From: Candidatus Aenigmarchaeota archaeon LH_S7
GTDB taxonomy: Archaea > Aenigmatarchaeota > Aenigmatarchaeia > QMZS01
DNA: 64,000 nucleotides
Assembly (NCBI GenBank): GCA_023659895.1
Contig: JAGXOL010000001.1
Location: forward strand, 15,757-79,756
Reading direction: 5' to 3'
Within the stretch, counting starts at the first letter, position 1. Every line of letters starts with the position of its first letter. A program made the translations under genes and the position numbers. Of this stretch, positions 8,017-63,716 are shown piece by piece. Under the pieces are notes generated by a model. That model made no database searches and was not told the origin of the DNA. It was given only the letters and a program-made list of their open reading frames with translations.

Positions 8017-8042
8017 AAAAATACAATATGGTTTTAATTTAT

Positions 8043-13900: not shown

Positions 13901-14095
13901 TCCAAGTAAAAGCCTGAATCTCTCAACACCATTTAAATTATCTTTGATCATGGCAAAAGCCTGAATATTGAAGAAAGCGGTTGCTATGTCAAAATTTGTT
14001 TTTGGATTCTCTCTTAAAACATTATTCAGGAAACTAATCAACTTGTTTCCTTCGCTGTTGTCTATTATTTCTTTTGGTATTGGCATTTTAATCAC
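10898..14095 (-). CDS. PLD-nuclease domain fused to SNF2-family helicase (DISARM DrmC+DrmD-like fusion)
   Basis: N-terminal HxK(x4)D motif HGKAYIFDDRIVIGSSNFT; helicase motifs GLGKT (I), VVDESHNFRN (II), LFLTATPINN (III), C-terminal QGQNLQ / QRAGRIDRIG (VI). Confidence 0.8.
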   Translation of the reverse strand: MIKMPIPKEIIDNSEGNKLISFLNNVLRENPKTNFDIATAFFNIQAFAMIKDNLNGVERFRLLLGKTPEIQNETTLGDVLLKEIRKEIEGFDLTKEQDKTIKLFIEFLKRKNVEIRLFEKFLHGKAYIFDDRIVIGSSNFTAAGLTRYGELNTWKQKSQAIFTRKEWFEKFWAESRDFKDELIEILENSRFGSKEYLPYDIYIKTLYEFQKDDVVEEGKNEKPKGLPETKVNLAQFQDAAIERIWKRLRKYGGCIVADSVGLGKTWIAKKILERIGYYERKNILIICPAQLMGMWAKEMKKIDVKENILSQENLASENFLEKAKKTLGGRFDDVELIVVDESHNFRNPLSNRWENFFALVNDNIAKKGKKPYMLFLTATPINNTLWDLYWQIMLLILMDRSSFIKENIPDLFKFFKQAKDNPSLLNDLLNEISIRRTRDYIIKNYPDAYIEINGEQKKIIFPERVLENINYQLDNAYKGMYKEISDIISNLKMAYYHLLEYKEGGVKTEEEMFVLNRMIQIGGIFRTILFKRLESSVESFRISIKRHIDFLEKLKKSLKAGKILGKKDFSKLLKNFGSISEEDIEEYLDKFESLEGTKLDVFEKDLYKIEDLFRDIDKDIKLLSKILEKVNTIKPEDDSKLNVLKDKLLNLSKDGQIVLFTYYADTLNYIYNEIIKDKKFSKLKIEAVSSSGLTNKNPQQREKIIEKFFKKEIDILMSTDVLSQGQNLQTAKYLINYDLHWNPTRMIQRAGRIDRIGSPYKKIFVYNFFPEDELEELLKLVEILQNKIIDIDKSVGLDQTILGEEIHPKVFGIIRKIKGKDPKIFAEVEQDAFGGGEKFYQPLKDFMKNKALEELEKIPYGVYSGLKKNKISGIFFYYKYGKDFHFWYLYDINTDSIITSKTKIIDFIACKQKEVRVIPNFFEKIYEVNRTILNKIEEDYNEVYSSQKSDTKFKEHSESKSSTFVKKMANSIEKEINDYLEEFPSDNNIQRVWDITLDKLQKIPLTKKRLQILRRIWKQYKKEGNWKKRVEELNNFLMEKGIFKKPIIEPFDKSKLQLVTIDFIS

Positions 14096-15923
14096 TTTTT
14101 ATGCTATTAAAGTAGCTTTTTAAATTTTCTTCTAAAATCTTATAAATGAAATTGAACATGGGCAAATCGTCATAAATGAAATCTAATATTCCAGTACTCA
14201 TAGAGATTAACTTGTACTTTTTTCCATTAGTTTTGACCTCTTTTTTAAAGTTTTCATGTGAAATTTCAGGCACTTCTTCGTTTTCCCCTTCTTCATAAAT
14301 TTCAACTTCTAAACCATCTTTACTTCCGTCACTTAGATAAAAAAACTGAATTTTTGGTGAGTCTTGGAATGACTTATACTCTTCTTTAACATCAAACTTT
14401 ATCATAACTTTTGATATTCCTTTAAATAAAAGTAATTTTTCTTTAATCTCTGGGAAATTATGGGACATCAGCTCAGAGTAAACTTTTGGTAAGCTATCAA
14501 AAAATATCCTTAGGTTATTTTTGACTGCATCTGGAGAAAATGTATTCCATATCCATCCGCTACCATCTTTTAATCTCGAATAGTCTTTCGGCGAATAAAC
14601 TCTATTTATATCTTTAATTTCTCTTGATTTCAAAAATAGAAACATTTCTTCAAATATCTTTAGTGGGAATCTACCATTTCCGATAGGTATTCTTGGGATG
14701 GAATCATTCTGAGTTATTCTTTCTTTTACCTTTTCTTCTACTTGTTTTCTCTCATTATCCATAATCTGGGAGATTAACATGTCTGGATCAAAGTATGGTT
14801 TCCTATACAGGCAATCTGAGTAATTCTTAATTCCATTTCTCTGATTCTTGATTAAGAATTTAATAGCTTCATCCATCCATATAGGTAAATATTTATAAAA
14901 TGCATATTCTATTTCATTAATATTAAATGCATCCTTTTTATCTAATCCCATCTGTTGATGAAATCTATCTATAAAACCAAAAATAAATTCTTTAGCTAAA
15001 AATTCGCTTACATCATGTTTCAATAATCTGTTTTTTAATAATCTAAGCATTTGAGCTTCAACAATTTCTAGTGCATATCCTTTGGGATTAGATTTTATAG
15101 GATTCTCCGCAAAATGTGCTGTAAAGCCAAGTCCCTCTTTCTCTAACTCTCTGTGCAATCCCTCGTTGACCTCCTTAATCTGAACATCATTTTTATTGGT
15201 AGATATGGGATAAAGGGCATAGTGTATCATATTATCTTCAAAACGATAATACGCTAAGCCGACTTTCCATGAGTTTGGATAAAACCTCTTTTTAATAATC
15301 AGGAATTCATTTTCTAGTAGACTATTAAACGAATCTAAGAAGAAATGAATTTTGATAAAGTCATCTTTAACTATTCTCAAAGCAGGATTTGATTTCTCAG
15401 ATAAATTTTTATAAGAGTCCTTTAGTTTATCGTATTCTTTTATCTTCTTTTTATAAGATTCAGTAATCTTTTTCCAGTCTTCAATATAACTACTATTATT
15501 ATCAATGATGTTCTCTTTTTTGAACGTTATAGTTATTGTTTTTTGATCCTCGGTGTGTAACTCACTTATTAATGAATTATTTACATGAATCCAGAAAGAT
15601 TTATTGTGATTGACATCAACACCAATCAGTAAAACCGGATTACAAGTACTGGCCTCACTATAAGAAATAAGCGAGATAGGACATTGTAATTTGTGCTTAT
15701 CCCCATTTTCTGGTAATGTCCTTATTTGAACTTCTAATTTACCAATGGGCGACCTGTTTCCGTTAACTAATTCTACATACCCGTCAATGTTCGGATACTT
15801 ATCACGTTCTTTTATGTCAGCCTTTACTTTCTCATGATTAAGGAGTTTCTTGAAAGTGTCAACTGCTTGAGTTTCTGCTTTATCAGTATTGCTATATGGT
15901 GCAGCTCTAATTTCTTCATTCAT
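14088..15923 (-). CDS. hypothetical defence-operon protein, possible N-terminal PD-(D/E)xK-like (DUF4365-like) domain
   Basis: 611 aa; N-term YPNIDGYVELVNG...IGKLEVQIRT pattern; no ATPase motifs; translationally coupled to both neighbours. Confidence 0.4.
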   Translation of the reverse strand: MNEEIRAAPYSNTDKAETQAVDTFKKLLNHEKVKADIKERDKYPNIDGYVELVNGNRSPIGKLEVQIRTLPENGDKHKLQCPISLISYSEASTCNPVLLIGVDVNHNKSFWIHVNNSLISELHTEDQKTITITFKKENIIDNNSSYIEDWKKITESYKKKIKEYDKLKDSYKNLSEKSNPALRIVKDDFIKIHFFLDSFNSLLENEFLIIKKRFYPNSWKVGLAYYRFEDNMIHYALYPISTNKNDVQIKEVNEGLHRELEKEGLGFTAHFAENPIKSNPKGYALEIVEAQMLRLLKNRLLKHDVSEFLAKEFIFGFIDRFHQQMGLDKKDAFNINEIEYAFYKYLPIWMDEAIKFLIKNQRNGIKNYSDCLYRKPYFDPDMLISQIMDNERKQVEEKVKERITQNDSIPRIPIGNGRFPLKIFEEMFLFLKSREIKDINRVYSPKDYSRLKDGSGWIWNTFSPDAVKNNLRIFFDSLPKVYSELMSHNFPEIKEKLLLFKGISKVMIKFDVKEEYKSFQDSPKIQFFYLSDGSKDGLEVEIYEEGENEEVPEISHENFKKEVKTNGKKYKLISMSTGILDFIYDDLPMFNFIYKILEENLKSYFNSIKSD

Positions 15924-15932
15924 TTTAATTCC

Positions 15933-17270
15933 TCAGTACCCATGAGCTTTTATTACCTCTTCTGTCTTTTTGAATAAGTCTTGATTGTATTCTTCTGTAA
16001 GAGCTTTAAGTTCATTCATCAATTTATTGACATCTTCTGTTTTGATATAACCGTTTTGAAAAAAATCTTCTAATTTGTCATTATCAATAACAGAAATTTT
16101 GTATTCAAAATAAAGTTTTACCAAATGTATTAGTGATTTTAGAGGAAATAATACTACTTTTAGGCTAAAGTCTTTTTCTAATGTTTTTATCATCTGATTA
16201 TCTTTTTTATTATTCAAGTCAAAATCATAAGCGAAGATTATAAAATGGGGAACTTTAAATCTAGAAGTAACATAATCCTTAGTATAGGCTTTAAGATACT
16301 TCCTTATTTGATTTTCGTGTTTTTGTAAAGGTAATTTTCCGCCTTTGTAACTCTTAATTTCTAATGGGATTAACAAACTTGGAGCACTTTTTATTACAAA
16401 TATAACTCCGTCTGGCTGATTTTTTTGGCCTAAAAGCTTTGCATTAAAAAGGGTAATTCTCAATAAGTCAGCTACATATTCTTGGAACTTTTCACCTTGA
16501 ACTTTAGAATTCTCTTTTCCTTTTTGTAACGCATAAGTTTCAATGTTCTGTATTATATCCTTCCAGAATTTTTCAATATCTACTAATTTTTTAGTATCTC
16601 TATATTTTAATTCTAATTCTAATTCTTTTCTTTTTTCTGATATTGACATTTCAATAAGTTTGAATTCTTTTTCAAAGAATTTTTTATCAAAAATCTTTTC
16701 TAAAGTTAGCAAACCGATATCTCCCCTAGAAGATAATGTGGACAGGGTAACTTCTGGACTAAAACCAATAAAGACATGAAAATCTGGAGTGTAGTTTTTA
16801 GACCAGCCTTTTAGAATATAAAGATCATTAAACCCTATTTTTTCTGTTGAAACCAAAACTGAAATCTTGAAAACTTTCCCTTGTAATAGAAATTTGTTAT
16901 TTTCTTCAGCTATGATGCTGTAGCCTTTTAGAAATCTAAGAAATTTTTCTTTAAGATACTGAATTGTTTTTTCTGTATCTAAACCAAATTCTCTAAATGC
17001 AATGTTAGAAATTCTTTTTCCACATTTTTTACAGAATGTAAATTCCATTCCTTCGGAAACACATGCAACACCACCACATTCACATTGAATCTCATATATT
17101 TTAGTAGCTCTAAGCTCCTCTAAATCATTCTTATCAAAGAACTTTATGATGCTATCTCTTTTTACAGATAATTTTCTAGATAATTCTAAGTCTGTAAAAT
17201 GCTTATCTGTTCCTTTGGATAACATTATTGAGGTAAAGATTACATTATCCTTATTCAAGCTCTTTGACAT
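15933..17270 (-). CDS. zinc-ribbon plus restriction-endonuclease-like (PD-ExK) protein
   Basis: CECGG...CKKCG ribbon near N-terminus; C-terminal QPDGVIFVIK...LIPLEIKSYK matches PD-x(n)-ExK nuclease signature. Confidence 0.5.
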   Translation of the reverse strand: MSKSLNKDNVIFTSIMLSKGTDKHFTDLELSRKLSVKRDSIIKFFDKNDLEELRATKIYEIQCECGGVACVSEGMEFTFCKKCGKRISNIAFREFGLDTEKTIQYLKEKFLRFLKGYSIIAEENNKFLLQGKVFKISVLVSTEKIGFNDLYILKGWSKNYTPDFHVFIGFSPEVTLSTLSSRGDIGLLTLEKIFDKKFFEKEFKLIEMSISEKRKELELELKYRDTKKLVDIEKFWKDIIQNIETYALQKGKENSKVQGEKFQEYVADLLRITLFNAKLLGQKNQPDGVIFVIKSAPSLLIPLEIKSYKGGKLPLQKHENQIRKYLKAYTKDYVTSRFKVPHFIIFAYDFDLNNKKDNQMIKTLEKDFSLKVVLFPLKSLIHLVKLYFEYKISVIDNDKLEDFFQNGYIKTEDVNKLMNELKALTEEYNQDLFKKTEEVIKAHGY

Positions 17271-18153
17271 GCTTCAACAAAACCTCCTTCAATTCTTTAA
17301 AAATATCCTTTATCTGTGGACGAAATGTTATTTTACCATTATCATAGAAGCTGATTGGTTTTTTGCTCATGTCCACTTTTTGAGAAATTAACTCTTTAGC
17401 AGATTCTTTAATCTTAATTCCCCTATCTTCAAAAAGCTTCAATGTCTTTTCTACATCAGAGCCTTTTATATGAATTTCATCTGCTCCAGAAAGATTTAAT
17501 CCAGTTGCCTTTACTGATTTGAATCTAATGTTTTTATCTAATTTTCTATATTCCTCTTCATTTATTTTAATCAAGTTTATAGAATCTTCTTTGAGATTAA
17601 AGTGATTTTGAAGTAAATCTTTAACAATTTCAAATTTGTTATAACTACTCGTTCTACATTCTATAATGGATATATCTGAATGATAGATGAAATATAAAGT
17701 GAATGGTCTTCTAAATCTAACATTTATTGGTTCTAATGTATTAGGTTCCTCTACGTTGCTATATTCGTAAGTATGTGAATGAGCATTCACATTAATTATA
17801 CTTTGATTATTCTGGGAAATTATTTTCTGAAATTCAAATATTAAGTCATTATCTTTATCTACAATTTTTTTGCTTTCAATTCCTTTAAACTCTAATTTCT
17901 TGTTTGAATAGGAAAAAAATACAGATCTCTTTTTAAGAAGACTATAATAATTTACGAGATATTCCAGAAGCTGTTTATCTTTTCTATACAATTCATTTAC
18001 AAAATCTTCTTTTTTTCTTGATTTTATGTCTGGAAGTTCCTTTCTTAATCTGCTTATCTTAACAATCTTCAATGCTCTTTCAATTAATTGATTTTTATCT
18101 TTCATCGTCTCAAACTCCCCGCCTTCTCCAATCTCTGCTTCACCAACTCGCAA
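17251..18153 (-). CDS. hypothetical defence-operon protein
   Basis: 300 aa, overlaps flanking genes, no recognised motif. Confidence 0.35.
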   Translation of the reverse strand: MRVGEAEIGEGGEFETMKDKNQLIERALKIVKISRLRKELPDIKSRKKEDFVNELYRKDKQLLEYLVNYYSLLKKRSVFFSYSNKKLEFKGIESKKIVDKDNDLIFEFQKIISQNNQSIINVNAHSHTYEYSNVEEPNTLEPINVRFRRPFTLYFIYHSDISIIECRTSSYNKFEIVKDLLQNHFNLKEDSINLIKINEEEYRKLDKNIRFKSVKATGLNLSGADEIHIKGSDVEKTLKLFEDRGIKIKESAKELISQKVDMSKKPISFYDNGKITFRPQIKDIFKELKEVLLKHVKELE

Positions 18154-21100
18154 ACACTCCAGTAAACCTCTTTCCTCTCCTCCTCCGTCAAGCCGAGTTC
18201 ATCAAAAATAATTTTGTCAAGCTCTGCCCTATCAGGAAGAGGTTTTGGCTCTTGTTCTCGGATTGGTTTTGATGGGTCAAGGCCGAATTCTTCGAAGATT
18301 GAGTGAACTTTTCTCTTAGAAATTTTACCGAAAATTTTTTTTAAGAAAGAAGAATTTATTTTGTTAGGATTTGGTATAAAAAATTTTCTTACTTCATATA
18401 TCATTGGTTTATTTAATCCTTCCCCGAGAGAAAACCTTCCCAAAGTTTCATAAAATAGAAATGAAATTGCCGAATTAAGCATACAGCAAATATTTTCTTT
18501 ATTGTTTTCTTTGAAATATAATCCGTACAAATTATAGTCAAGAAAACAAGTAATGTTGTTAAATGGTACAATAAATCTTTCACCAATTTGACTTGAAAAG
18601 ATAAAATCAGGGGCTTTTACTTCACCTGTAGAATACCAATTGTTTCTTCCTTTAACACTGGGAATCTCAGTATATTTAATCCCGTCTTTCTTTTGTTTCT
18701 CAGCCCACTCTATATAACTTAAAATATTTGTTCCTTTAAGTTGTTTTTTTGATTTATTACAATATAAAACATAGAATCTAAGGTTGCTTTCATTTAATAT
18801 AATAGTTTCATATTCTTTAGGTGTTTTTAAAATTTGTTTAAGATATTCCTTTTCAATACCAAGTTTCTTAATCTTATCTTTATCTAAATAAAAGAATTTA
18901 TTGATTCCGGATTTTATTCCTGGAGAAACTTTAGCAATCTTTCCTAATTCAACTAACTTCCCTTTTCCCTTCTCCAAAATTGTATAGAATATATCTGGAG
19001 CCCTCAGATATTTCCCGCCCCATTTATTGCCTTCATAACTTCCAGCTTTGAATCGGTCTTTTTTATCATAGTTTTCTGGATATTCCCAACCATCTTCAAG
19101 CAAATCTCCTTGTAAAATAGGAAAAACTCTATAATCTTGTGTTGTTTTAACATTCTTCACTAACTCAGTTATGGTTTCTCCTCTTGTTTTGACTTTAGCA
19201 TTTTCAATTTCAATCAAATTCTTTGTATTTAAAACCTCTTCAAATGGTTTTTTGAACATTACAAATTTTGCTGTGTGATTCAACATAGGCCAATCCTTTT
19301 TACCATCAACATTCAAACCTTCTATTCTTTTATCTTTAATTATAGGAGCACCAAACAAAGCAATAATGGTATTAACATCAGCATGAGCAAAACTTCTTTT
19401 TGGATTGTCATAAATTGCAGTTACAGGAGCATACCTTAACAGAAATTCCTGCAGATTCCTACCATAACCTACATCAAGCCATGAATTAGAAGTAATAAAA
19501 CAAAATGTTCCTTTTTCATTCAACAAACCCAAACCATGAAAATAGAAGTAAGTGTAATAATCACTTTTTTTATTTATCTTATTAATAATTGGAAAAATAT
19601 TTTTTACAGACTTAATCAGCTTTTCTTTATATTCTTTTCTATCTTTTAAAGTAATTTCTGCTTTTAATTTATTCGGTGGAGATATCTTTTCCTGTCTCAC
19701 ATAAGGAGGATTCCCTATAACGATATCAAAACCATTTTTGTCCCCGAAGATTTCAGCAAAGTCAATATCCCAGACAAATGGTTTCTTTTCCGGATTTTTC
19801 AGAAGTTCTTTAATTTTCTTTAGTTTTTCAATTTCTTCTTCAAATTGCTGAATTTCTTTTTCTGTTGCATTAATTTTTTCTTTTTCTTTCAGATAAACCT
19901 CAGCCTCAACATTTATCTCTGAATTAAACAATCCTACTTGTTTTCCTTGTTTCTTCATATTATTTTCCAGAGATTCGGTATCTTTTTTTAATCCCTCTAT
20001 TCGTTCATCAATTATTTCCTCAAATAATCTGGTTTCTTCGCTTCTAACTGCTTCAGGAGTCTTGAATTTTACTGTTGGAGAATTTTCAAAATATTTTCTC
20101 TTTTCCTGTTTTAGATTATCTAATTGCTCCCTTAAATGTGGTTTTATATCCTCGTTTGTTCTGAGATTAAAACTAAGCCCCCCAATTTCCTGAATTAATG
20201 AATCTCCAACCCTTAGATTAAGATTTAAATTAGGTAACAGAGGGTGTTTTCTCAATTCCTCTTTTTTAAATTCTCCTTCAACAATCAATTGCAACCACAA
20301 TCTTAATTCTGCTGCATGACTTGCCCAAGGCATTACATCAACACCATAGAGAGAATACTGAAGAATTCTCTTTTTCAACTCAAAATCCGTCAAATCATTT
20401 TTTATATTTGCATACACCATTCTGTAAAGTTCTGCGAGAACATTCAACAATCCAACTAAAAAAGCTCCTGAACCGCAGGCAGGGTCTACAGCAGATAAAT
20501 TATCCAGAACTCTTTCTATCTCATACCAAATCTTTTTATCACCAAATTCTTTCTTAAGTTTTTCCTTCTCCTCAGGAGAATCAAAAACAAGATGATAAAT
20601 TTTATCCTTTGGAATGTCAGGCAAATGTTTTGACAAATATTCAACTATTACTCTTCTGCACATGAAATCAACTTCAACTCTCGGAGTGTAGAAAATACCT
20701 AAATCATTCCTGTCATAAATCTCCTCAGCTACATTAGCCAAAGACTCATAGACATAACCAATCATCTGAGGATCAACAGCAACCTCTTGGTCTAAAGGTA
20801 TATCTTCTTTTATTGTAAAATTATATTTCTCAAAGAAATCAAAAATATTCTGAAACAATTTATCAGTTATTTCTACCTTCAATTTATCTAAATCATTTTC
20901 TTTAAATAAGCCACCATTCAGATATGGGGAATTAGAAATTACTCTATTTACTTCTTCCGGGTAACCAGTTATTTCATTTGAACGGTTATTAAAGGCTTTG
21001 AGGAAAATCTGTTTAAGCCATATTTCATAAAATTCATTGGAGTTATATTTTCCCAAATTTTTATACGACTTCCACAACCACCCAACAAATTTTGGATATT

Positions 21101-21788
21101 CAAGCCATTTCTTTTTTGAGATAAAATAGATAAACATTAATCTGTTCAGGAACTGTAAGGTAAATTCATGTGATTCTTTTCTTGGGATATTCTGTTTATT
21201 CACTTCATCCCTCAATGTAAAAAATATTTTCTTATAATCTTCAAAAAATGCTTCTGTTACTCTTTCAACGCTAAATGCTTTCTTCCATTTTCTCCAAACA
21301 TCACGCCAGTTAGTTTCTCCTTCATAACGAATATTCGAAAGAGTTTCAATAATAGTATAACCTTCTTTTTTGTTTATAATTTCGTCTCTATCTATAATCA
21401 ATTTTGTTAGTTTTAGTTTATGTTCGCCTTTTTCAGTTTTTTCACGATTCGGTAACATAAATACAATTTCAGAATAATCAGTTGCAAAAATCAATAAAAA
21501 GTGTAAATATTGTTTATCAAAAGCTGTTGTAACAGATCTTATAAAAGAAGGGTTCAATGTTTTTGTTTCAAGCAAAAAAACAGGTAGGTTCTCACCAAAA
21601 CTTGTAATTGAATACAAGTTCTTAATTCTTTGAACATCATCTTTTTTGAAATTAAAGGATTCTTTTTTTCTTTTCGTAGTTTTATAAGAATAGTTCAAAT
21701 GACTAAACAAAGTAAAAATATCATCTGCAGATTTAATTTTGCCAATATGCTGGTGTATTTTTCTCCTCAATCCTATATTATCTTCCAT
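18102..21788 (-). CDS. gamma-class N6-adenine DNA methyltransferase, large (BREX PglX / DISARM DrmMI / Type IIG-like)
   Basis: 1228 aa; GIFYTPRVEVDFM (motif X), VDPACGSGAFLVGLLN (motif I), IVIGNPPYVRQEK (motif IV NPPY); long N- and C-terminal extensions. Confidence 0.8.
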   Translation of the reverse strand: MEDNIGLRRKIHQHIGKIKSADDIFTLFSHLNYSYKTTKRKKESFNFKKDDVQRIKNLYSITSFGENLPVFLLETKTLNPSFIRSVTTAFDKQYLHFLLIFATDYSEIVFMLPNREKTEKGEHKLKLTKLIIDRDEIINKKEGYTIIETLSNIRYEGETNWRDVWRKWKKAFSVERVTEAFFEDYKKIFFTLRDEVNKQNIPRKESHEFTLQFLNRLMFIYFISKKKWLEYPKFVGWLWKSYKNLGKYNSNEFYEIWLKQIFLKAFNNRSNEITGYPEEVNRVISNSPYLNGGLFKENDLDKLKVEITDKLFQNIFDFFEKYNFTIKEDIPLDQEVAVDPQMIGYVYESLANVAEEIYDRNDLGIFYTPRVEVDFMCRRVIVEYLSKHLPDIPKDKIYHLVFDSPEEKEKLKKEFGDKKIWYEIERVLDNLSAVDPACGSGAFLVGLLNVLAELYRMVYANIKNDLTDFELKKRILQYSLYGVDVMPWASHAAELRLWLQLIVEGEFKKEELRKHPLLPNLNLNLRVGDSLIQEIGGLSFNLRTNEDIKPHLREQLDNLKQEKRKYFENSPTVKFKTPEAVRSEETRLFEEIIDERIEGLKKDTESLENNMKKQGKQVGLFNSEINVEAEVYLKEKEKINATEKEIQQFEEEIEKLKKIKELLKNPEKKPFVWDIDFAEIFGDKNGFDIVIGNPPYVRQEKISPPNKLKAEITLKDRKEYKEKLIKSVKNIFPIINKINKKSDYYTYFYFHGLGLLNEKGTFCFITSNSWLDVGYGRNLQEFLLRYAPVTAIYDNPKRSFAHADVNTIIALFGAPIIKDKRIEGLNVDGKKDWPMLNHTAKFVMFKKPFEEVLNTKNLIEIENAKVKTRGETITELVKNVKTTQDYRVFPILQGDLLEDGWEYPENYDKKDRFKAGSYEGNKWGGKYLRAPDIFYTILEKGKGKLVELGKIAKVSPGIKSGINKFFYLDKDKIKKLGIEKEYLKQILKTPKEYETIILNESNLRFYVLYCNKSKKQLKGTNILSYIEWAEKQKKDGIKYTEIPSVKGRNNWYSTGEVKAPDFIFSSQIGERFIVPFNNITCFLDYNLYGLYFKENNKENICCMLNSAISFLFYETLGRFSLGEGLNKPMIYEVRKFFIPNPNKINSSFLKKIFGKISKRKVHSIFEEFGLDPSKPIREQEPKPLPDRAELDKIIFDELGLTEEERKEVYWSVCELVKQRLEKAGSLRR

Positions 21789-22394: not shown

Positions 22395-23585
22395 AAGGCA
22401 AGAAAACTCCCGAATTTATTCGTAGAGATGAATTGCCCTTAAATAGTTTAAAAACATAATTAAATATGGTTAGAGTCAGAAAAACAATTAAATGTAAAAT
22501 AATAAAACCAACAGAGTTAAAATTAAAACATTTAAACAAAGAATATAATAATGTCCAAGAACTGCTACAATTAGAATCTAAAGGAATTGAATTTCTGCCA
22601 ATCTTTCATTCTCTAAAGAAAAAAGTTTATTCTGCTAACTTACAACAGGCTTTAAGATTTTACAAGAAGATTAAACCAAATAAAGAATATCCAATATCCT
22701 TTAGAAAGGATTTGTTAGAAGTCAGGAAAACAGATAACAAACTATCTAAATATTGGGTTAAAATACCTACTAAACAAAGAAAAGGTGGTTTAAAATTAGC
22801 AATTAAATCACAACCTTTTAATTTTAAGGATTATGAGATTTGTGAATCCAAACTATTTAAAAAGAAAAATAATTGGTTTTTAAATCTAACAGTTCAAAAG
22901 GAAGTTGAACTGAATAATACTTATGACTCTGTTCTTAGTCTTGATTTGGGACAGAAGTATATGGGCGTATCAGTGATGCATCCATCTACTTTAATGATTC
23001 CTAAATTCTACGGCAAAGAAGTCAGAGGAATAAGAAGAAACTACGACTATATTAGGAAGCAACTTGGCAAAAATAAACTACTTAAAGAAATAAAAAGATT
23101 TGGACAGAAAGAGCAAAGAAAAGTAACTGATTGTCTCCATAAAATCTCTAATGAAATAGTGGATTTGGCTCTAACCAGTAATTCTACTATTGTTGTTGGA
23201 GACCTGAAAGGGATTAGAAAATCAGCAAAAGGTAAAGGTAGAAAGTTCAATAGGATTGTTTCAAATATGCCTTATCTGGAGTTAATTCAAATGCTTGAAT
23301 ACAAAGCAAATTGGGAAGGAATAAGGGTAATTAAAGTAAATGAAAGAGGAACAAGTCATACCTGCTCCAAATGTGGTAATGAAGGTTCAAGACCAAAGCA
23401 GGGAGTTTTCAATTGTTCTGTTTGTGGATTAAAAGACTATAATGCAGATGTGAATGGTGCTTCTAATATAGGTAATAAATTGTCTTCTGGGTATATCTTG
23501 GAAGATGGGGCAACCTTGACTTTGCCCGAAACTGATGTATATGAGACATCAGAATCTTCTGACTTTAGTCGTGGAGAATGTCAAA
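22395..23585 (+). mobile_element. IS200/IS605-family TnpB-only (IS1341-like) element, copy 1
   Basis: About 70 nt left end and about 40 nt right end plus ORF are about 90% identical to copy at 34509-35689; left-end hairpin GGCAA...TTGCC. Confidence 0.7.
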
Positions 23586-23590
23586 AATAA
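22466..23590 (+). CDS. tnpB: TnpB (OrfB) RNA-guided nuclease-family transposase-associated protein
   Basis: 374 aa; RuvC-like motifs and C-terminal zinc finger CSKCG...CSVCG...NADVNGASNI. Confidence 0.8.
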   Translation: MVRVRKTIKCKIIKPTELKLKHLNKEYNNVQELLQLESKGIEFLPIFHSLKKKVYSANLQQALRFYKKIKPNKEYPISFRKDLLEVRKTDNKLSKYWVKIPTKQRKGGLKLAIKSQPFNFKDYEICESKLFKKKNNWFLNLTVQKEVELNNTYDSVLSLDLGQKYMGVSVMHPSTLMIPKFYGKEVRGIRRNYDYIRKQLGKNKLLKEIKRFGQKEQRKVTDCLHKISNEIVDLALTSNSTIVVGDLKGIRKSAKGKGRKFNRIVSNMPYLELIQMLEYKANWEGIRVIKVNERGTSHTCSKCGNEGSRPKQGVFNCSVCGLKDYNADVNGASNIGNKLSSGYILEDGATLTLPETDVYETSESSDFSRGECQK

Positions 23591-24268: not shown

Positions 24269-24603
24269 AGCCCCGTCGTCTAGTGGCCAAATTCTTCTTT
24301 CTTTAGAAAAAAAGAAGCTTTTGATAGGAAGAAAGAAAAGGAAGGCTAAACTCCCGTTTTGGATGGAACCTTCCTCATAAACCTTGGGTTTATGGGGCCC
24401 CGAAAAACAAGTTTTTCGAGGTTTTAAAAAGGTTCCAGGGTTATGGATGCTGGCCTTTGGATATCAAAGGTTGGAGAAGCTAAAAAATTATTTTGGCTTC
24501 TATGATAGAAGACAGCCAGAGACCGCGGTTCGAATGGAACATCAAAAAGATAAAATTTACCAAATCCAAAAGAAAATAAGTTTCGGGAATCCGCGCGGGG
24601 CTA
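24269..24603 (+). tRNA. tRNA-Gln(UUG) interrupted by three introns: D-loop 24287-24440 (154 nt), anticodon loop 24461-24513 (53 nt), T-loop 24536-24590 (55 nt)
   Basis: Exons AGCCCCG-TC-GTCT-AGTGG | TTAT-GGAT-G-CTGGC-CTTTGG | A-GCCAG-AGAC-CGCGG-TTCGAAT | CCGCG-CGGGGCT-A sum to 73 nt; A1:U72 and anticodon loop CUUUGGA as in archaeal tRNA-Gln. Confidence 0.65.
24378..24437. repeat. conserved about 55-nt hairpin element, copy 1 (inside tRNA-Gln intron 1)
   Basis: GGTTTATGGGGCCCCGAAAAACAAGTTTTTCGAGGTTTTAAAAAGGTTCCA about 90% identical to 28705-28763; internal stem CGAAAAAC/GTTTTTCG. Confidence 0.5.
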
Positions 24604-24956
24604 TTAAATGTGACTTCCTCTCCCTGAATAAATTCAGGAGCTTCCTTAACCAAAACACTGTTTTGAATACAGAAGGCTGGCGAGGTTCTAAAGTCACTAA
24701 CAAAACTTACTATAGCAGAGGTTTTGGTCTGACACGCTTTAGTTTAGGGCTGAGTCACCTTTTTCAGATGCCTTATTTCACTATTGTAGGGTCAGCAACC
24801 CCGTCTTCCAAGATATACCCAGAAGACAATACAGGACATGTCCGTCCATATTTAATTATGTTTTAAAAGTATTAAAGGACAATTGAGCTACACGATTTAA
24901 ATCAGGAGTTTTCTTGCCTTTGGTTAAATATAAATAATTTAAAACAAAATAATTTT

Positions 24957-28233: not shown

Positions 28234-28671
28234 TTAGTGAGGGGAGAGTGTCAATTTTTTCTGTTCTTTTTCTACTACTGCTTTTTTTTCTCCAGAGGGT
28301 TTTTTGATTGTTCCACCAGCTTTGCTTATTTTTTCCTCAACTGTTTTGCTCCATTTATCCGCAATTATTTCAACTTTTTTATTTAACTCTCCTTCTCCAA
28401 GAAGTTTCATATATCCAAGTTCTTTTAAATTGATTTTGTTTCCTTTGAATTTTTCCAAATCCTTCAAGTTAATTACTTTTTCTTCTCCTTCCTTCTTCAA
28501 GGTTCTGTGAACAAAGTAATTAGGATTTTCTTTTAAGGTCTTAAAAATCTTGTGAGTTTTTGAGCCAGCCATTCCACTACCTCCTTTGTTACCTTTTCCT
28601 CTGTGCCTTTTTTTGCGGCCATAGCCACAGCTCCTTGAACCACGCATCTTCTGAGTTTTAGTTTTTCCCAT
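28234..28671 (-). CDS. rpl15: ribosomal protein L15 (uL15)
   Basis: MRGSRSCGYGRKKRHRGKGNKGGSGMAGS glycine/basic N-terminus of uL15. Confidence 0.8.
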   Translation of the reverse strand: MGKTKTQKMRGSRSCGYGRKKRHRGKGNKGGSGMAGSKTHKIFKTLKENPNYFVHRTLKKEGEEKVINLKDLEKFKGNKINLKELGYMKLLGEGELNKKVEIIADKWSKTVEEKISKAGGTIKKPSGEKKAVVEKEQKKLTLSPH

Positions 28672-28704
28672 AAGAACTTTTTTTATGAAATAATTTAAAA
28701 AGGT

Positions 28705-28763
28705 TCTACCGAAGGTTTATGGGGCCCGAAAACAAAGTTTTTCGAGGTTTCTAAAGGCTTCCA
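28705..28763. repeat. conserved about 55-nt hairpin element, copy 2 (between PIN-ATPase-KH gene end and rpl15 start)
   Basis: GGTTTATGGGGCCCGAAAACAAAGTTTTTCGAGGTTTCTAAAGGCTTCCA, homolog of 24378-24437. Confidence 0.5.
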
Positions 28764-34508: not shown

Positions 34509-35689
34509 AAAGGCAAGAAAACTCCCAAATCGTGTAGAGGATTTGCCCTTAAATAATTTAAAAACATAATTAAATATGGTCTGTGTTAGAAAAACGATTA
34601 AATGCAAGATAATAAAGCCAACAGAGTTAAAGTTGAATCAATTAAACAAAGAAAATAACAATATTCAAGAACTGCTACAATTAGAAAAATTTGGTTTAGA
34701 TTTTCTACCTATTTACAATTCTCTTAAAAAGAAGGTTTATTCTGCAAATATACAACAAGCCTTAAGATTTTATAAAAAGATTAAATTAGATAAAGAATAT
34801 CCAATATCCTTTAGAAAAGATTTGTTAGAGATTAGGAAAACAGATAACAAACTTTCAGAGTATTGGGTTAAAATACCTACTAAACAAAGAAAAGGTGGAC
34901 TAAAGTTAGCAATTAAATCACAACCTTTTCTCTTTGAAGATTATGAGATTTGTGAATCTAAATTATTTAAAAAGAAAAATAATTGGTTTTTAAACCTAAC
35001 AGTTCAAAAAGAAGTTGAACTGAATAATACTTATTCCTCTGTTCTCGGTCTTGATTTGGGACAGAAGTATATGGGAGTATCGGTGATGCAACCATCTGCT
35101 TTAATGACTCCTAAATTCTACGGCAAAGAAGTCAGAGGAATAAGAAGAAAATACGACTATATTAGAAAGCAACTTGGTGAAAAGAAACTGCTTAAAGAAA
35201 TAAAAAGGTTTGGACAGAAGGAGCAAAGAAAAGTAACTGATTGTCTCCATAAAATCTCTAATGAAATAGTAGATTTGGCTCTAACCAGTAATTCTACTAT
35301 TGTTGTTGGAGACCTGAAAGGGATTAGAAAATCAGCGAAAGGCAGAAACTTCAATAGAATAATCTCAAATATGCCTTATTATCAATTAACACAAATGCTC
35401 GAATACAAAGCAAATTGGAGTGGGATAAGAGTGGTTAAAGTGAATGAAAGGGGAACAAGTCATACTTGTTGTAAATGTAGTTCTAAAGGTTCAAGACCAA
35501 AACAAGGAGTTTTCAATTGTTCTGTTTGTGGACTAAAAGACTACAATGCTGACATAAATGGTGCTACTAATATAGGTAATAAAGTGTCTTCTGGGTATAT
35601 CTTGGAAGATGGGGCAACATTGACTTTGCCCGAAACTGGTGCAATATGACATCAGAATCTCTTGACTTTAGTGATGGGAGAGGGTCAAA
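34509..35689 (+). mobile_element. IS200/IS605-family TnpB-only element, copy 2
   Basis: Homologous ends and ORF to copy 1; conserved sequence continues about 40 nt past tnpB stop (candidate omega/reRNA and right end). Confidence 0.7.
34576..35649 (+). CDS. tnpB: TnpB (OrfB) family protein, paralog of 22466-23590
   Basis: 357 aa, about 90% aa identity to copy 1; zinc finger CCKCS...CSVCG. Confidence 0.8.
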   Translation: MVCVRKTIKCKIIKPTELKLNQLNKENNNIQELLQLEKFGLDFLPIYNSLKKKVYSANIQQALRFYKKIKLDKEYPISFRKDLLEIRKTDNKLSEYWVKIPTKQRKGGLKLAIKSQPFLFEDYEICESKLFKKKNNWFLNLTVQKEVELNNTYSSVLGLDLGQKYMGVSVMQPSALMTPKFYGKEVRGIRRKYDYIRKQLGEKKLLKEIKRFGQKEQRKVTDCLHKISNEIVDLALTSNSTIVVGDLKGIRKSAKGRNFNRIISNMPYYQLTQMLEYKANWSGIRVVKVNERGTSHTCCKCSSKGSRPKQGVFNCSVCGLKDYNADINGATNIGNKVSSGYILEDGATLTLPETGAI

Positions 35690-46781: not shown

Positions 46782-48899
46782 TCAAAATTCCCCCAACTTT
46801 TTCTGCTTTTTATTTTCTAAAATGTTTTTTGAAGTTGCCCATTTTAACCTCACAATTTCATTGTAACTTTCTTTATCTAAATTCCTCAAAAATTCTGTGG
46901 TTCTTTCATCACTAGGATAACCTGAATTATGCAATAAAATACCAGAAAAGCCACCAACAAAATTCTCTATATTTTTTCCGTTTGGCTTTACTTCTAAATC
47001 ATAAACAAATTCTTTTCTTCTTAAATTTTTTATTGATTTCAGAGTATACCAACAAATATCAGAATTTAATAATTTATTTATTTTTTTGGTATCTTTACCA
47101 TCAAATATTTTTATTATCTTTCTTATAGTGGATTTTCTTATAGAACCAGATTTTTGATTCTCGATTCTACTTGTTATTCCATGATCTATACAAGTTAACT
47201 CAGCCAATTTTCTTTGGGAGATTTTATATTTTAATCTCAACTTTTTTATTGTTTTTCCTATTATCGAAGGAATATTATCTGGAGAAAGAGAATTCGTATT
47301 TTGAGAAAGCTCTCTTATTACATGCCTACCTCTACTTTGCTTAAAAGAAGAAGTAGGTTTATTTAAAAATAAATATAACCAAGATAAATCATAAAATATA
47401 TATTTGCTCCTGGTTTCTACTTCCCAATTGTTTTCATCCATATATCCATCACCATCCAGGTATCCTCTAATGAAATTTTTAATTTGTTCTTTAGAGCAGG
47501 AAAAAATAAAGTTTGGTATTCTTTTTTTGTATGCTGAATTTCCTACCCATTTATTAAAAAGTTTACATAGTATCCCTGAATTAATTTCAATACCATCTTT
47601 ATCAAATCTATAAGATGTGTTCAAATTCTTGCATGTATATTCAATTTCATTTAATACTTTATGGTCAGTGTTAGAAATACATACATTATAACCCTTTGTA
47701 TATCCCTCAGCAAGATACAACCCTAAGAGCCAAGTAAATTCTTTGTTTAGTCCTAAGATCGCTTTTATACTTGACTTTCTACCCCTACTATAAAGTATTG
47801 CATCATTTATAAATCTTTCCTTAAGGTAATCTCTCTTGAGACTAGTCACTATGTGAAGAGGTATATACGATTTCCTCTCCCATTCGTAGGATCTTACTCT
47901 ACTGTAACCTTGGGAAATACTTAGTTGCTGAATTTTTTTAAATCCCTCTCCCCTAAAAATTTTAGAGATGATCTTTCCGCTTAAATAAACAGGAGATTTC
48001 TTAGATGATGGAACAATTTTGGCAAGGTTTAAATTTTTAATACCTTTCCTTATATCTATATATTTGGCTGCTGCAATATAATCTCCAACCTTAAGATCCG
48101 AAACTTTAATGGGCATCAAATTTAAATTAGAGTTTAATTTAAAAATAGGATGGTTAAGAGTTAATCTAACTTTTTTCCCATAATTTAATTTAATTTCATA
48201 AATTGGTTGCGATGTATGTTTAATAAAGTTTGTAATTTTATATTTTTTTATTTTAAGTGAGTTTGGATCAATACTGTATGTATATAAATTCCCTTTTTCT
48301 TTATTTTCCACTACTTTTCCAATCTGCTCTAATTTTCTATCCCCTTTTCTATTTTCAATTAATATTCTCTCTTGGTATGGTAAAGATCCAAAAAATCCAT
48401 GTTTATTATGTAGCTTCTCAATCTCCCTGTCTCTTGTGACCTTTGCCAGAATGGAAGCTCCTCCAACAACAACGTACTTGTTATCTGCCTCATTCTCAGC
48501 AACAATATTTCCATCCTTGTTTTTCAATTTTTCCAAGACTTTATTCTTGAATTTCTCAGTATTGGCTTCAATAGAATCAAGATAAATTTTAGGTTTTCTC
48601 ATCCAAAAGGAATTGATTATTTGAGCGATCTTAGTAATCTCAATTTCGTTAAGATTTCTTCTTTCCATTTCTCTATTGAGTTGCTTTGATGAAATTTTTA
48701 ATACAATGTAATCATCAGCAATTTTTTTTATCTTATCTATCATTTCCTTTCTTTTCTCTGGTAAGACTTTCTTTGAGTCTTTAACACCAAGTTCTTTCAA
48801 TTTTTTTTCTTTTGATTTTTTAATCAATAAACCTGCAATAACTAGAGGACCTACAACTGCACCGCGACCAGCTTCATCAATTCCCAAAATGTAAGACAT
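46782..48899 (-). CDS. rnhB: ribonuclease HII interrupted by an about 487-aa LAGLIDADG intein
   Basis: N-extein GIDEAGRGAVVGPLVIAG...GGASILAK...HGFFG and C-extein SGYPSDERTTEF flank an insert ending ...ILLHN|S with LLGLYLAEGY and IRGYLDGDGY motifs. Confidence 0.8.
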   Translation of the reverse strand: MSYILGIDEAGRGAVVGPLVIAGLLIKKSKEKKLKELGVKDSKKVLPEKRKEMIDKIKKIADDYIVLKISSKQLNREMERRNLNEIEITKIAQIINSFWMRKPKIYLDSIEANTEKFKNKVLEKLKNKDGNIVAENEADNKYVVVGGASILAKVTRDREIEKLHNKHGFFGSLPYQERILIENRKGDRKLEQIGKVVENKEKGNLYTYSIDPNSLKIKKYKITNFIKHTSQPIYEIKLNYGKKVRLTLNHPIFKLNSNLNLMPIKVSDLKVGDYIAAAKYIDIRKGIKNLNLAKIVPSSKKSPVYLSGKIISKIFRGEGFKKIQQLSISQGYSRVRSYEWERKSYIPLHIVTSLKRDYLKERFINDAILYSRGRKSSIKAILGLNKEFTWLLGLYLAEGYTKGYNVCISNTDHKVLNEIEYTCKNLNTSYRFDKDGIEINSGILCKLFNKWVGNSAYKKRIPNFIFSCSKEQIKNFIRGYLDGDGYMDENNWEVETRSKYIFYDLSWLYLFLNKPTSSFKQSRGRHVIRELSQNTNSLSPDNIPSIIGKTIKKLRLKYKISQRKLAELTCIDHGITSRIENQKSGSIRKSTIRKIIKIFDGKDTKKINKLLNSDICWYTLKSIKNLRRKEFVYDLEVKPNGKNIENFVGGFSGILLHNSGYPSDERTTEFLRNLDKESYNEIVRLKWATSKNILENKKQKKLGEF
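46926..48386 (-). other. intein (Hint domain + LAGLIDADG homing endonuclease + HTH) within rnhB
   Basis: Begins Ser (SLPYQERIL), block B TLNHPIF, ends HN followed by +1 Ser; two LAGLIDADG blocks. Confidence 0.7.
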
Positions 48900-49118: not shown

Positions 49119-49348
49119 GGCGGGAGCTGGTCCATAGCGAACTTGCTTTTTAAGTATTAGTAAGTCTGTAAGGATGGAGCAGTTAGGAGTGCTCGTCGAA
49201 CCCTTTTCTCCCTATCGCTCTAAAAGCGTTCACGGAAAAAAAGAGAAATAGGTGCGGAAGGCTCATAAGGACCTTTTTAGAAAGAGGTTCTATCCAAAAT
49301 GCATTTGGGAGACCCGAAGGTCGGTGGTTCAAATCCACCTCCCGCTAT
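49119..49348 (+). tRNA. tRNA gene with about 150 nt of intervening sequence; identity unresolved (tentative anticodon arm GAACC-CTTTT...GGTTC would be Lys-UUU)
   Basis: 3' end GGTGG-TTCAAAT-CCACC-TCCCGCT-A pairs with GGCGGGA at 49119; internal D-arm-like GAGC-AGTTAGGAGT-GCTC at 49177-49194; several extra hairpins. Confidence 0.45.
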
Positions 49349-51092: not shown

Positions 51093-51127
51093 ATAAGTTT
51101 CTAAAGTAAGAAATTATGCGTTGGTGG

Positions 51128-51227
51128 TCTAGATCTTAACAATTTATTGTTTAGAGGACAATGGCATGATACAGCCCTGCCACGGCTGTGACCCGGGTTC
51201 GAATCCCGGCCAACGCAGAACAATTTT
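51128..51227 (+). tRNA. tRNA-Gly(GCC) with about 28 nt of insertion(s) between D-stem 5' strand and anticodon stem (51141-51181 region)
   Basis: GCGTTGG-TG-GTCT...CAGCC-CTGCCAC-GGCTG-TGAC-CCGGG-TTCGAAT-CCCGG-CCAACGC-A; D region is 41 nt instead of about 13. Confidence 0.65.
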
Positions 51228-51309
51228 TTAGGAAAAATTTTCCATCGAAGAGTCCTATGATTAAAAATAAATAAATGACTTCCCTAAATCTATTATTTAT
51301 TAGTTATAT

Positions 51310-51574
51310 GGGGTTGTGGTGTAACCTGGCAGCACTGCTGGCTCCAGTGGAATCTTTTTCTTTAAAAAAGAAAAACCTTCCAGTCAAAAAGAAATAGATT
51401 CCCTTCAGTCAAAAAGAAAATGGAGTTATGACGCTTCGCGGATGAATGAAGAAACCAGCCAATCCCGGTTCAAATGGAACTTTTAGAAAAAGTTCCATCA
51501 AAACAAGCTTTTAAAAAAGCTTGAGCAAAAAAGGAACCTTTTCTAAAAAGATTCTGAAAATCCGGGCAACCCCA
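51310..51574 (+). tRNA. tRNA-Trp(CCA) with two introns: canonical 37/38 (51348-51453, 106 nt) and T-loop (about 51476-51561, 86 nt)
   Basis: Exons GGGGTTG-TG-GTGT-AACCTGGCA-GCAC-T-GCTGG-CTCCAG | A-CCAGC-CAAT-CCCGG-TTCAAAT | CCGGG-CAACCCC-A give a 73-nt cloverleaf. Confidence 0.7.
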
Positions 51575-51682
51575 GGAGATTTTTGGAGCTTCCACTTCCA
51601 TAAAAACCTCCAGCCAAAACCTGATTAATAGGAAAGGTTGCATCCAGAAAAAGAAACATATTTTTAATATTATAATTATATT

Positions 51683-63462: not shown

Positions 63463-63716
63463 TGGGCTGGGGCAGATTTTCAAATTATTTTTCTTTTGGA
63501 GTTGGTAGACCTTTTCTTTCTAAAAGAAAAGGCATGCCTTTGAACTGCCGATCTTCGCCTTTCTCTTGTTTTTGGATGAAATCTCAAAGCATTGTAACTA
63601 CAAATTTATTATTTTCGTAGTTACCTTACTTTGTTTCTAAAAGGTTTTCTGTAAGGGCGACGTCCTAACCAATTATCTCCATAGTGATTTTCACTAATGG
63701 TCTAGACCACCAGCCC
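63463..63716 (-). tRNA. tRNA-Val(UAC) with three introns: D-loop (plus 63672-63701, 30 nt), canonical 37/38 (63561-63649, 89 nt), T-loop (63477-63538, 62 nt)
   Basis: Minus-strand exons GGGCTGG-TG-GTCT-AG | TGGTTA-GGAC-G-TCGCC-CTTACA | A-GGCGA-AGATC-GGCAG-TTCAAA | T-CTGCC-CCAGCCC-A sum to exactly 73 nt with fully complementary stems. Confidence 0.8.

Follow-up and report, generated by a model that had tools for sequence, protein, structure and literature searches.

A two-intron tRNA-Trp(CCA) gene of an Aenigmatarchaeota archaeon with a probable minimal C/D-type guide for C34 in its anticodon-loop intron

INTRODUCTION

In Euryarchaeota such as Haloferax volcanii and Pyrococcus (sR50), the intron of tRNA-Trp carries a box C/D guide that directs 2'-O-methylation of C34 (Cm34) and U39 (Um39). 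This guide is the closest described counterpart of the element that we report here, a tRNA-Trp(CCA) gene with two introns on the forward strand of contig JAGXOL010000001.1 from Candidatus Aenigmarchaeota archaeon LH_S7. The gene spans positions 51310 to 51574 of a 64-kb stretch of that contig (the window), which is the sequence examined at the source locus and whose numbering is used throughout. Box C/D guides follow an N+5 rule, by which the target base lies opposite the fifth base upstream of the box, and a kink-turn (K-turn) is built from a canonical stem, a 3-nt bulge, tandem G.A/A.G pairs, and a non-canonical stem. The tRNA-Trp intron guide of Haloferax directs Cm34 (PMC7994747, PMC4090602), the intron layout in H. 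volcanii runs ...UGACGA CCCUCUGGAGUU CCGA GGUGC (PMC2584109 supplement), and the intron is dispensable in Haloferax (PMC4090602). Position 59/60, where the second intron of our locus lies, is a documented non-canonical tRNA intron position (PMC4090602), and non-canonical or multiple bulge-helix-bulge (BHB) introns are associated with endonucleases of broadened specificity (PMC4090602, PMC5829648, PMC3239211). Splicing endonucleases of DPANN archaea include loop-bearing alpha4, (alpha-beta)2, and epsilon2 forms, and those with extra loops have been linked to disrupted tRNA genes (PMC5829648). Intron transposition has been described for Thermoproteales, according to the citation of Fujishima 2010 in PMC4090602.

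We conclude with good confidence that the locus is a functional Aenigmatarchaeota tRNA-Trp(CCA) gene with two BHB introns, of which the first would house a guide for Cm34 and the second would belong to a fast-changing intron family.

RESULTS AND DISCUSSION

A tRNA-Trp gene in three pieces

When the pieces 51310-51347, 51454-51475, and 51562-51574 are joined, ARAGORN recognizes a 73-nt tRNA-Trp(CCA) with a flawless cloverleaf, and the spliced 73-mer has a G+C content of 61.6%, against 31.5% for the window. In our final assignment, exon 1 (51310-51347) supplies positions 1-37, comprising the 5' strand of the acceptor stem, the D-arm, the 5' strand of the anticodon stem, and the loop bases CUCCAG, with letters running GGGGTTG...CTCCAG. 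Exon 2 (51454-51474) supplies positions 38-59, from A38 through the 3' strand of the anticodon stem, a variable loop CAAU, and the 5' strand of the T-stem to the T-loop bases UUCAAA. Exon 3 (51561-51574) begins with U60 and continues with the 3' strands of the T-stem (CCGGG) and acceptor stem (CAACCCC) and the discriminator A; this 3' piece (...CCGGGCAACCCCA) stops at 51574, and the CCA end is not encoded in the gene.

The unspliced locus is invisible to ARAGORN with intron mode on or off, and Rfam returned zero matches for it at the gathering threshold or at E<=10, be it to the tRNA family RF00005 or to any C/D family. A relative with a single intron (L011; relatives are designated by L numbers) scores 51.4 bits as an Rfam tRNA. 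The cloverleaf is absent from the unconstrained minimum free energy (MFE) fold of the locus (-77.9 kcal/mol); a fold constrained to the cloverleaf and two BHBs reaches -71.3 kcal/mol, compared to a shuffle mean of -55.7 kcal/mol. The exons join into a perfect cloverleaf with BHB-type geometry at both junctions, and the locus is almost certainly a real two-intron tRNA-Trp gene. An earlier inspection of the letters alone, which we call the sequence-only reading, had proposed just such a gene with a canonical 106-nt intron at 37/38 and a further intron in the T-loop, and the spliced cloverleaf, the BHBs, and the conservation in relatives bear this out.

Conservation among DPANN relatives

The closest relatives of the MinD protein encoded downstream are labelled Candidatus Aenigmatarchaeota or Aenigmarchaeota, and a 99%-identical copy is present in GCA_023659905.1 (L038). 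Contigs with MinD homologues that are 70 to 84% identical carry the same tRNA-Trp gene beside MinD and S3Ae: it lies directly upstream of MinD in L002/L003, L004/L005, and L006/L007, and about 2 kb from MinD on the opposite strand in L008. The lengths of introns 1 and 2 are 140 and 59 nt in L002/L003, 32 and 41 nt in L004/L005, 41 and 0 nt in L006/L007, and 175 and 43 nt in L008.

Scanning species-representative genomes and metagenomes with a pattern of mostly fixed exon 1 bases yielded 37 loci, which represent 20 distinct genes from genomes that carry the NCBI labels Aenigmatarchaeota, Woesearchaeota, Micrarchaeota/Anstonellales, and Diapherotrites; since the D-arm and anticodon loop were fixed in the pattern, the search itself accounts for part of the conservation seen in them. 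An intron at 37/38 is present in all 20 genes, ranging in length from 12 to 343 nt. Only six genes have the 59/60 intron (the window, L002, L004, L008, L030, and L035; 14 to 86 nt), and they seem to make up a single Aenigmatarchaeota subgroup. Every stem cell is paired (273/273) in a set of 13 distinct spliced sequences, with compensatory changes in 8 of 21 pairs, three of them within the T-stem that intron 2 splits, and the observed covariation score was reached by none of 500 shuffles.

Two BHB introns, at 37/38 and 59/60

We scanned 51300-51590 for BHB motifs, considering every pair of 3-nt bulges set apart by a 4-bp helix. Intron 1 (51348-51453, 106 nt) lies at the canonical position 37/38, with the anticodon stem as the outer helix. 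Its central helix joins CUCC (positions 32-35) to GAAG (51448-51451) through 3 of 4 pairs, in which C35, U33, and C32 are paired and C34 faces a mismatched A, and its bulges are A36-G37-U and A-A-A38. The remaining outer helix (h') is a hairpin, GGAAUC...GAUUCC with inner stem UUUUUCUUU/AAAGAAAAA (51349-51402), that starts at the second intron base (i2) and overlaps a tandem repeat with a 25-nt unit present 2.4 times (51365-51420). The BHB of intron 1 is found in relaxed form only, with h' coming from the hairpin at i2. A placement at 38/39 was rejected; only 37/38 lets the anticodon stem serve as outer helix. The same closing arrangement recurs in 17 of the 20 distinct DPANN genes, where intron 1 ends with GAAG or GGAG plus two intron bases and A38 completes the bulge. 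GAAG is the BHB strand in 15 of the 20 genes, with C34 mismatched, and a perfect GGAG occurs only in L021 and L030. We note that the mismatched C34 is the presumed methylation target, and that the bases ahead often read xUGAAGA and resemble a C' box (51448-51453 in the window; 20 DPANN genes).

Intron 2 (51475-51560, 86 nt) is a BHB intron in the T-loop, at position 59/60. The T-stem (CCCGG/CCGGG, 5 bp) forms the outer helix, all four pairs of the central helix form between UUCA (54-57) and UGAA (51555-51558), the bulges are A58-A59-U and A-A-U60, and the terminal h' has 3 bp. A repeat of AAAT at the two intron ends leaves the cut itself ambiguous over the range 56/57 to 60/61, but only 59/60 makes the T-stem the outer helix; the other positions in this range were rejected, and the 59/60 motif is the top score of the regional scan. 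The sequence-only reading had the length right at about 86 nt and placed the cut one base too far to the right, which yields the same mature tRNA through the AAAT repeat but does not fit the BHB. Three hairpins lie inside the intron (51476-51496, 51504-51523, and ~51533-51555), and no recognizable cargo was found in it.

A conserved K-turn module with a candidate guide for C34

The 5' two-thirds of intron 1 vary freely among relatives, and the 3' third is conserved. This third contains a module at 51421-51448 that reads UGGAG-UU-AUGA-[CGC UUC GCG]-GAU-GA. The bases UGGAG plus UU (51421-51427) can form seven pairs with tRNA positions 30-36, five of them Watson-Crick (C32-A36) and two G.U (G30 and G31). 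They are followed by a box D-like AUGA (51428-51431) and by a capping hairpin CGC-UUC-GCG (51432-51440) that corresponds to the canonical stem of a K-turn and covaries between lineages. The hairpin leads into a GAU 3-nt bulge, a tandem-sheared GA, and AUG (51441-51448), of which 51442-51448 spell a box C-like AUGAAUG. A non-canonical stem can form between 51446-51449 and UUAU at 51426-51429. From these letters the element at 51421-51448 appears to be a degenerate but conserved box C/D-type K-turn, with D-type and C-type boxes and tandem G.A pairs; binding of L7Ae is predicted by this anatomy. G51423, opposite C34, is the fifth base upstream of the AUGA box, which is where an antisense guide obeying the N+5 rule would place it, albeit in a short duplex: pairing with positions 30-37 amounts to 7 to 8 bp across the genes that have the module.

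The module is present in 16 of the 20 distinct genes as GGAG, two bases, and NNGA, and the distance from GGAG to GA is identical in all 16. The first box is AUGA in the window and L002, CUGA in L011, L019, and L021, and UUGA in several further genes, with CAGA, ACGA, and GCGA in a single gene apiece. Besides the window's CGC/GCG, the capping stem occurs as UGCU/AGCA, CGGC/GCCG, GC/GC, GUCCU/AGGGC, GUUUC/GAAAC, and CGGCUU/AGGCUG; in all there are 8 covarying lineage types, and the stem has shrunk to a bare loop (K-loop) in L011, L021, and L035. The bulge is GAU, AAU, or UAU followed by GA in 15 of the 16 module genes, the remaining one being L035 (ctt), and the module of L020 has a complete AAUGAUGA. 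In some lineages the module takes a minimal form of 32 to 41 nt, and the Micrarchaeota-type genes, with introns of 12 to 15 nt, keep the BHB strand only and lack the module.

The sequence-only reading had seen no clean C/D boxes in intron 1 and supposed that its content might be different. This is overturned by a conserved C/D-type module that recurs in 16 of the 20 genes with the spacing of H. volcanii. Of the two nearest boxes that it had named, GGATGAATGA does form the box C-like half, but CTGA sits in intron 2, where its TGA belongs to TGAA, the complement of T-loop TTCA in the BHB helix, and its C lies directly before that helix. The full architecture of a classical guide is not found. 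The 5' end of intron 1 has no C box, and the intron ends are unpaired around the boxes, leaving no terminal pair of box C (RUGAUGA) and box D (CUGA); intron 1 holds a single box pair in place of a bipartite C/D plus C'/D' arrangement, and a strict bipartite C/D'/C'/D pattern had zero matches in the whole window. No Rfam C/D family matches the window locus or L011 and L020, the last two of which carry canonical boxes. A motif scan for fibrillarin, Nop5, and L7Ae found none in 327 kb, a sample too small to interpret.

Two further candidates were set aside. L019 and L020 have GCAGGU, complementary to A38-C43, after the C-like box, and a position-39 guide there was rejected, as a GA (D') box at N+5 is missing. 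An assignment of UGGAG as the BHB strand of a nested inner intron was likewise rejected, since the flanking helix does not form.

In the model that we favor, the splicing endonuclease would cut the pre-tRNA at 37/38 and 59/60, and the exons would be ligated. The last third of intron 1 would fold into one K-turn made of AUGA, the capped stem, and the box C-like (G)AUGA, which would recruit L7Ae and next Nop5-fibrillarin. UGGAG(UU) would then pair on the anticodon loop and set C34 opposite the fifth base for 2'-O-methylation, as in Haloferax and Pyrococcus. Because UGGAG:CUCCA and GAAG:CUCC use the same bases, the guide and splice-site pairings would be sequential or would occur on different molecules, and the conformations for methylation and splicing are predicted to be mutually exclusive on one molecule. 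Intron 2 would combine a BHB motif with hairpin modules, as part of a family of related T-loop introns that turns over rapidly in several tRNA genes.

Relatedness and turnover of the introns

Ten introns at 59/60, in four or more different tRNAs, were found in the sequences analysed: six in tRNA-Trp, one each in the window's tRNA-Gln(UUG) and tRNA-Val(UAC), and two in other tRNAs of relatives. All ten use the T-stem as the outer helix, with 3 to 4 pairs that join positions 54-57 to intron bases n-5 to n-2. Eight of the 10 have AAU as the 3' bulge and 9 have AAU or AAG as the 5' bulge, and a hairpin starts near the second intron base in all but the 14-nt intron of L035. Several of these introns also resemble one another between tRNAs of different identity. 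The window Val intron matches that of L030 Trp at z=14 (~80% identical over 56 nt), the L030 Trp intron matches that of another tRNA in L008 at z=9.6, and the window Gln intron matches that of window Val at z=7.8, all z-scores being generous as they come from mononucleotide shuffles of A/T-rich sequences. The T-loop introns of different tRNAs thus appear to form a related family.

The sequence-only reading had guessed at such a relationship, and the Val-Trp and Gln-Val matches agree with it. The particular pair on which that guess was based, however, the Trp and Gln T-loop introns of the window, shows no significant similarity, and the opening GGAAC that was taken for a shared recognition or insertion signature does not hold up, as the Trp T-loop introns of relatives start with GCAACC, TAAGCC, TGAAGC, GTCAGC, and TAAGCA. 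The T-loop introns of window Trp and L030 Trp are unlike each other, and for the Trp introns of the window itself, significant matches are confined to tRNA-Trp introns in relatives. When the introns were compared by BLAST to the window, only low-complexity noise was returned, and a permissive hairpin scan of the window gave an uninformative 649 hits.

At 37/38, the L002 Trp intron 1 (bases 3-66) shares 91% identity over 65 nt with the intron of the window tRNA-Val(UAC). The likeness begins 2 bases past the splice site, and in L002 the Val-like stretch is followed by the resident Trp guide module. The 5' region of window intron 1 is 76% identical to the L030 Trp intron, with unrelated sequence in L002. 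Highly similar intron sequences are therefore shared, at the same position, by tRNA genes of different identity. The module shared by Val and Trp had 0 matches in a scan of viral contigs.

Other changes involve the growth of introns by repeated units. The Gly-Trp region of L038 matches that of the window nearly base for base, save for 157 extra bases inside intron 2 that consist of a 36-nt hairpin-plus-A-rich unit repeated 3.4 times and an inverted copy of a ~50-nt element. Through this difference, located at L038 836-957 versus window 51489/51490, the T-loop intron is 243 nt long in GCA_023659905.1 and 86 nt long in the window, and Logan contig SRR14170872_43, from public short reads, begins inside the T-loop intron; the two lengths reflect either true variation between the genomes or a collapse during assembly. 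The hairpin module in intron 1 of L009 has two further copies in an intergenic stretch of a relative and is tandemly multiplied in L010.

Two repeated sequences extend beyond the Trp introns. One is the ~50-nt element (…GGTTTATGGGGCCC(C)GAAAAACAAGTTTTTCGAGGTTT…), which occurs at the 5' end of tRNA-Gln (24385-24424), in the intergenic region at 28705-28763, 4.3 kb downstream, and inverted within the Trp T-loop intron of the near-identical genome (L038 ~958-1010); it may represent a repeat element, a partial tRNA duplication of the att type, or part of a split tRNA. A 5S rRNA at 28614-28750 was considered and rejected, as Rfam finds none and the region contains a partial copy of the tRNA-Gln 5' end. 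The other is a recurrent module composed of a hairpin xxCC-UUUU..AAAA-GGxx followed by A(U/G)(U/C)CAAAA(G/C). T-loop introns contain it, as do the 5' portions of canonical introns, the sequences immediately past tRNA 3' ends, and some intergenic regions (for example at 51476-51503, 51575-51625, and 24604-24665 of the window and in L009, L010, and L016). In intron 1 of L010, a ~62-nt version is repeated in tandem at least 3 times around a gap in the assembly.

Alternative readings

Two other accounts bear on what the gene does. The more radical is that the locus is a decaying tRNA-Trp pseudogene with inserted repeat or hairpin elements and that a functional copy lies elsewhere. In its favor, the introns are long, AT-rich, and assembled from modules that are tandem or palindromic, two near-identical genomes differ by 157 nt in intron length, and standard tRNA finders do not call the gene. 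Because the stems co-evolve across the introns and the split gene is conserved in relatives, we consider this account extremely improbable: the exons are intact, with all stem cells paired and 8 pairs showing compensatory change, the insertions fall exactly where BHB motifs can form, the relatives 70 to 84% identical in MinD keep the two-intron layout beside MinD and S3Ae, and the L038 insertion leaves both splice sites untouched. A closer competitor accepts the gene and its introns and takes the intron 1 module for a structural K-turn only, which would bind L7Ae or aid folding and so present a weak BHB to the endonuclease, the anticodon-loop complementarity being a relic that guides no methylation. 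Several points weigh against guiding and in favor of this view. Intron 1 has only one K-turn, the guide duplex of seven pairs is short and includes two G.U pairs beside five Watson-Crick pairs, both boxes are degenerate, with AUGA in place of CUGA and AUGAAUG in place of UGAUGA, and there is no match to an Rfam C/D family or to a canonical C/D small RNA (sRNA) pattern anywhere in the window. The bipartite C/D architecture has been argued to be a primary specificity determinant, with one-sided guides losing specificity (PMC1635284), and the Haloferax precedent is itself a dispensable intron (PMC4090602). The splice motif adds its own difficulty for our favored model, as the intron 1 BHB is relaxed, with a conserved C34.A mismatch and a hairpin instead of end-to-end outer pairing. 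A purely structural role, however, fails to account for a GGAG-to-GA distance that all 16 lineages hold to the base amid surroundings that vary from 32 to 343 nt, and for the placement of C34 at N+5 exactly as in the tested Haloferax guide. On this balance we judge the structural reading unlikely and hold that intron 1 probably encodes a minimal, single-K-turn C/D-type guide for Cm34.

A separate matter is where the variable intron sequence comes from. Both intron 2 and the variable stretch at the 5' side of intron 1 may be copies of mobile hairpins resembling miniature inverted-repeat transposable elements (MITEs), or of transposing BHB introns, that move by recombination through the near-identical exons of T-arms and anticodon arms or through an RNA intermediate; they would persist since the endonuclease removes them, and they might break up integration (att) sites. 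This would explain the 91% identity between the L002 Trp intron 1 (bases 3-66) and the window Val 37/38 intron, the ~80% likeness of the window Val and L030 Trp T-loop introns even though the Trp introns of the window and L030 differ, the two intergenic copies of the L009 module, the tandem expansions in L038 and L010, and the inverted copy of a 50-nt genomic element inside the L038 intron, and Thermoproteales supply a precedent (Fujishima 2010, as cited in PMC4090602). Low-complexity A/T-rich sequence, however, inflates scores against simple shuffles, neither a transposase nor a target-site duplication is evident, viral contigs gave 0 matches, and gene conversion between tRNA genes would leave the same pattern without mobility. 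We lean slightly toward mobility as the origin of this sequence. More tentatively, the DPANN tRNA-Trp intron might be a circularly permuted "half-mer", a single-K-turn guide surrounded by mobile, modular Aenigmatarchaeota tRNA introns. In this speculative picture, which we consider rather doubtful, a capped form of the euryarchaeal terminal stem would connect the C34 guide and its D box with box C, with the exons attached at the former C'/D', and the conserved 3'-terminal xUGAAGAA might double as BHB strand and C' relic. The element could conceivably be complete only in the excised circular intron, or else act as a one-sided ribonucleoprotein (RNP), and the introns would perhaps pass from one tRNA gene to another and lengthen through tandem hairpin units, even among strains that are nearly identical.

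Other features of the window and broader significance

The window is a piece of an AT-rich archaeal chromosome that encodes the ribosomal protein S3Ae, the PolD small subunit, PCNA, a diphthamide synthesis protein, and an intein-containing RNase HII. Several of its tRNA genes are interrupted. An uncalled tRNA-Val(UAC) on the minus strand (63463-63716) has introns in the D-loop (~63674-63701), at 37/38 (63561-63649), and at 59/60 (63477-63538). An uncalled tRNA-Gln(UUG) (24396-24603) has insertions after the acceptor 5' strand (~24403-24431/38), at 37/38 (24461-24513), and at 59/60 (24535-24589); the central helix of the last is UUCG/CGGG, and G1.U72 appears to close the acceptor stem. The tRNA-Gly(GCC) (51119-51216) has a 26- to 28-nt D-loop insertion, and ARAGORN reports only 51145-51216 with a wrong 5' end or, in intron mode, mis-calls a tRNA-Pro. 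The only Rfam tRNA match in the window is a tRNA-Ser(CGA) (8043-8154) whose T-loop is interrupted near 54/55 by a 28-nt hairpin intron (~8108-8135). This gene is overlapped by the longest open reading frame (ORF) of the opposite strand, PGK (6814-8223), whose true start therefore probably lies further inside the frame. Finally, a tRNA-Met(CAU)-like locus (49119-49346) has a 3' part GGTGGTTCAAATCCACCTCCCGCTA and an anticodon loop CTCATAA at ~49262, with long insertions that disrupt the D-arm region. No tRNA_int_endo domain was found among the ORFs scanned, which comprised most window ORFs of at least 150 aa and a few shorter ones.

Beyond the tRNA genes, the RNase HII gene (46782-48899, minus strand) is interrupted by an intein with LAGLIDADG and helix-turn-helix (HTH) domains. 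Two ORFs (22466-23590 and 34576-35649) encode TnpB/Cas12f1-like proteins with a TNB domain; omega-RNAs of archaeal IS200/IS605 elements are reported to be circularized (PMC12558985). A probable defence island on the minus strand (10236-21788) encodes an Eco57I/MmeI-type restriction-methylase (1228 aa), a fusion of SNF2 helicase and PLD nuclease (1065 aa), and a DUF4365 protein, along with ORFs of 221 aa (10236-10901), 300 aa (17251-18153), and 445 aa (15933-17270) that have no Pfam match.

Standard annotation overlooks the Trp gene and overlooks or mis-assigns at least 5 further tRNA genes with multiple introns within these 64 kb, and DPANN genomes may therefore seem to lack tRNAs that they do have. 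The conserved guide and K-turn suggest that the link between the Trp intron and C34 methylation predates the split of DPANN and Euryarchaeota, and the minimal 32- to 41-nt form is a natural case in which to probe the smallest RNA that suffices for a C/D RNP. The sharing of introns between Val and Trp together with the 157-nt difference provides a tractable system for the gain, movement, and expansion of tRNA introns.

Comparison with known systems

The putative guide resembles that of Haloferax in its host gene and intron position (37/38), in the motif GGAG-NN-NNGA with C34 at N+5 (UGGAG-UU-AUGA in the window and CUGGAG-UU-CCGA in Haloferax), and in the competition of guide and BHB strand for the CUCC bases. 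The GCAGGU of L019 and L020 likewise follows a C-like box, as the position-39 guide of Haloferax follows box C. The arrangement around these shared parts is different. Haloferax has the order stem - C - guide39 - D' - hairpin - C' - guide34 - D - stem, whereas the window has one box pair, in which a capped stem connects the C-like box with the box that follows the C34 guide, and it has no position-39 guide. The window boxes are degenerate, its guide duplex has 7 bp compared with ~10 bp, and its BHB helix has the C34.A mismatch where the Haloferax GGAG is perfect. The guides are placed as around the terminal C/D motif of Haloferax, with the C34 guide ahead of D and, in L019 and L020, GCAGGU past C. 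As we interpret it, the order of the module looks circularly permuted relative to Haloferax, with the C'/D' half lost.

In combining a canonical with a non-canonical intron and using relaxed BHBs, the gene is like tRNA genes of Thermoproteales, Nanoarchaeota, and ARMAN-Micrarchaeota (PMC4090602, PMC5829648, PMC3239211). Unlike the non-canonical introns of those groups, the Aenigmatarchaeota introns are unusually long (14 to 243 nt) and contain tandem hairpin modules, and the outer helix h' of their BHBs is an intron-internal hairpin that starts from the second intron base. The near-identical intron at the same position in tRNAs of different identity (Val and Trp) parallels the shared introns of Thermoproteales, but it is seen here across two related genomes and in a handful of genes only, and the incoming intron in tRNA-Trp is fused upstream of the resident C/D module rather than replacing the whole intron. 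Full-text literature searches on tRNA introns and C/D guides returned no description of Aenigmatarchaeota tRNA introns, and the lineage appears to be undescribed in this respect in the literature searched. The BHB introns at 37/38 and 59/60, the guide in the tRNA-Trp intron, and the shared introns are all of known kinds; the novelty lies in variants of them, namely the way in which the guide is built and the growth of the introns by modules.

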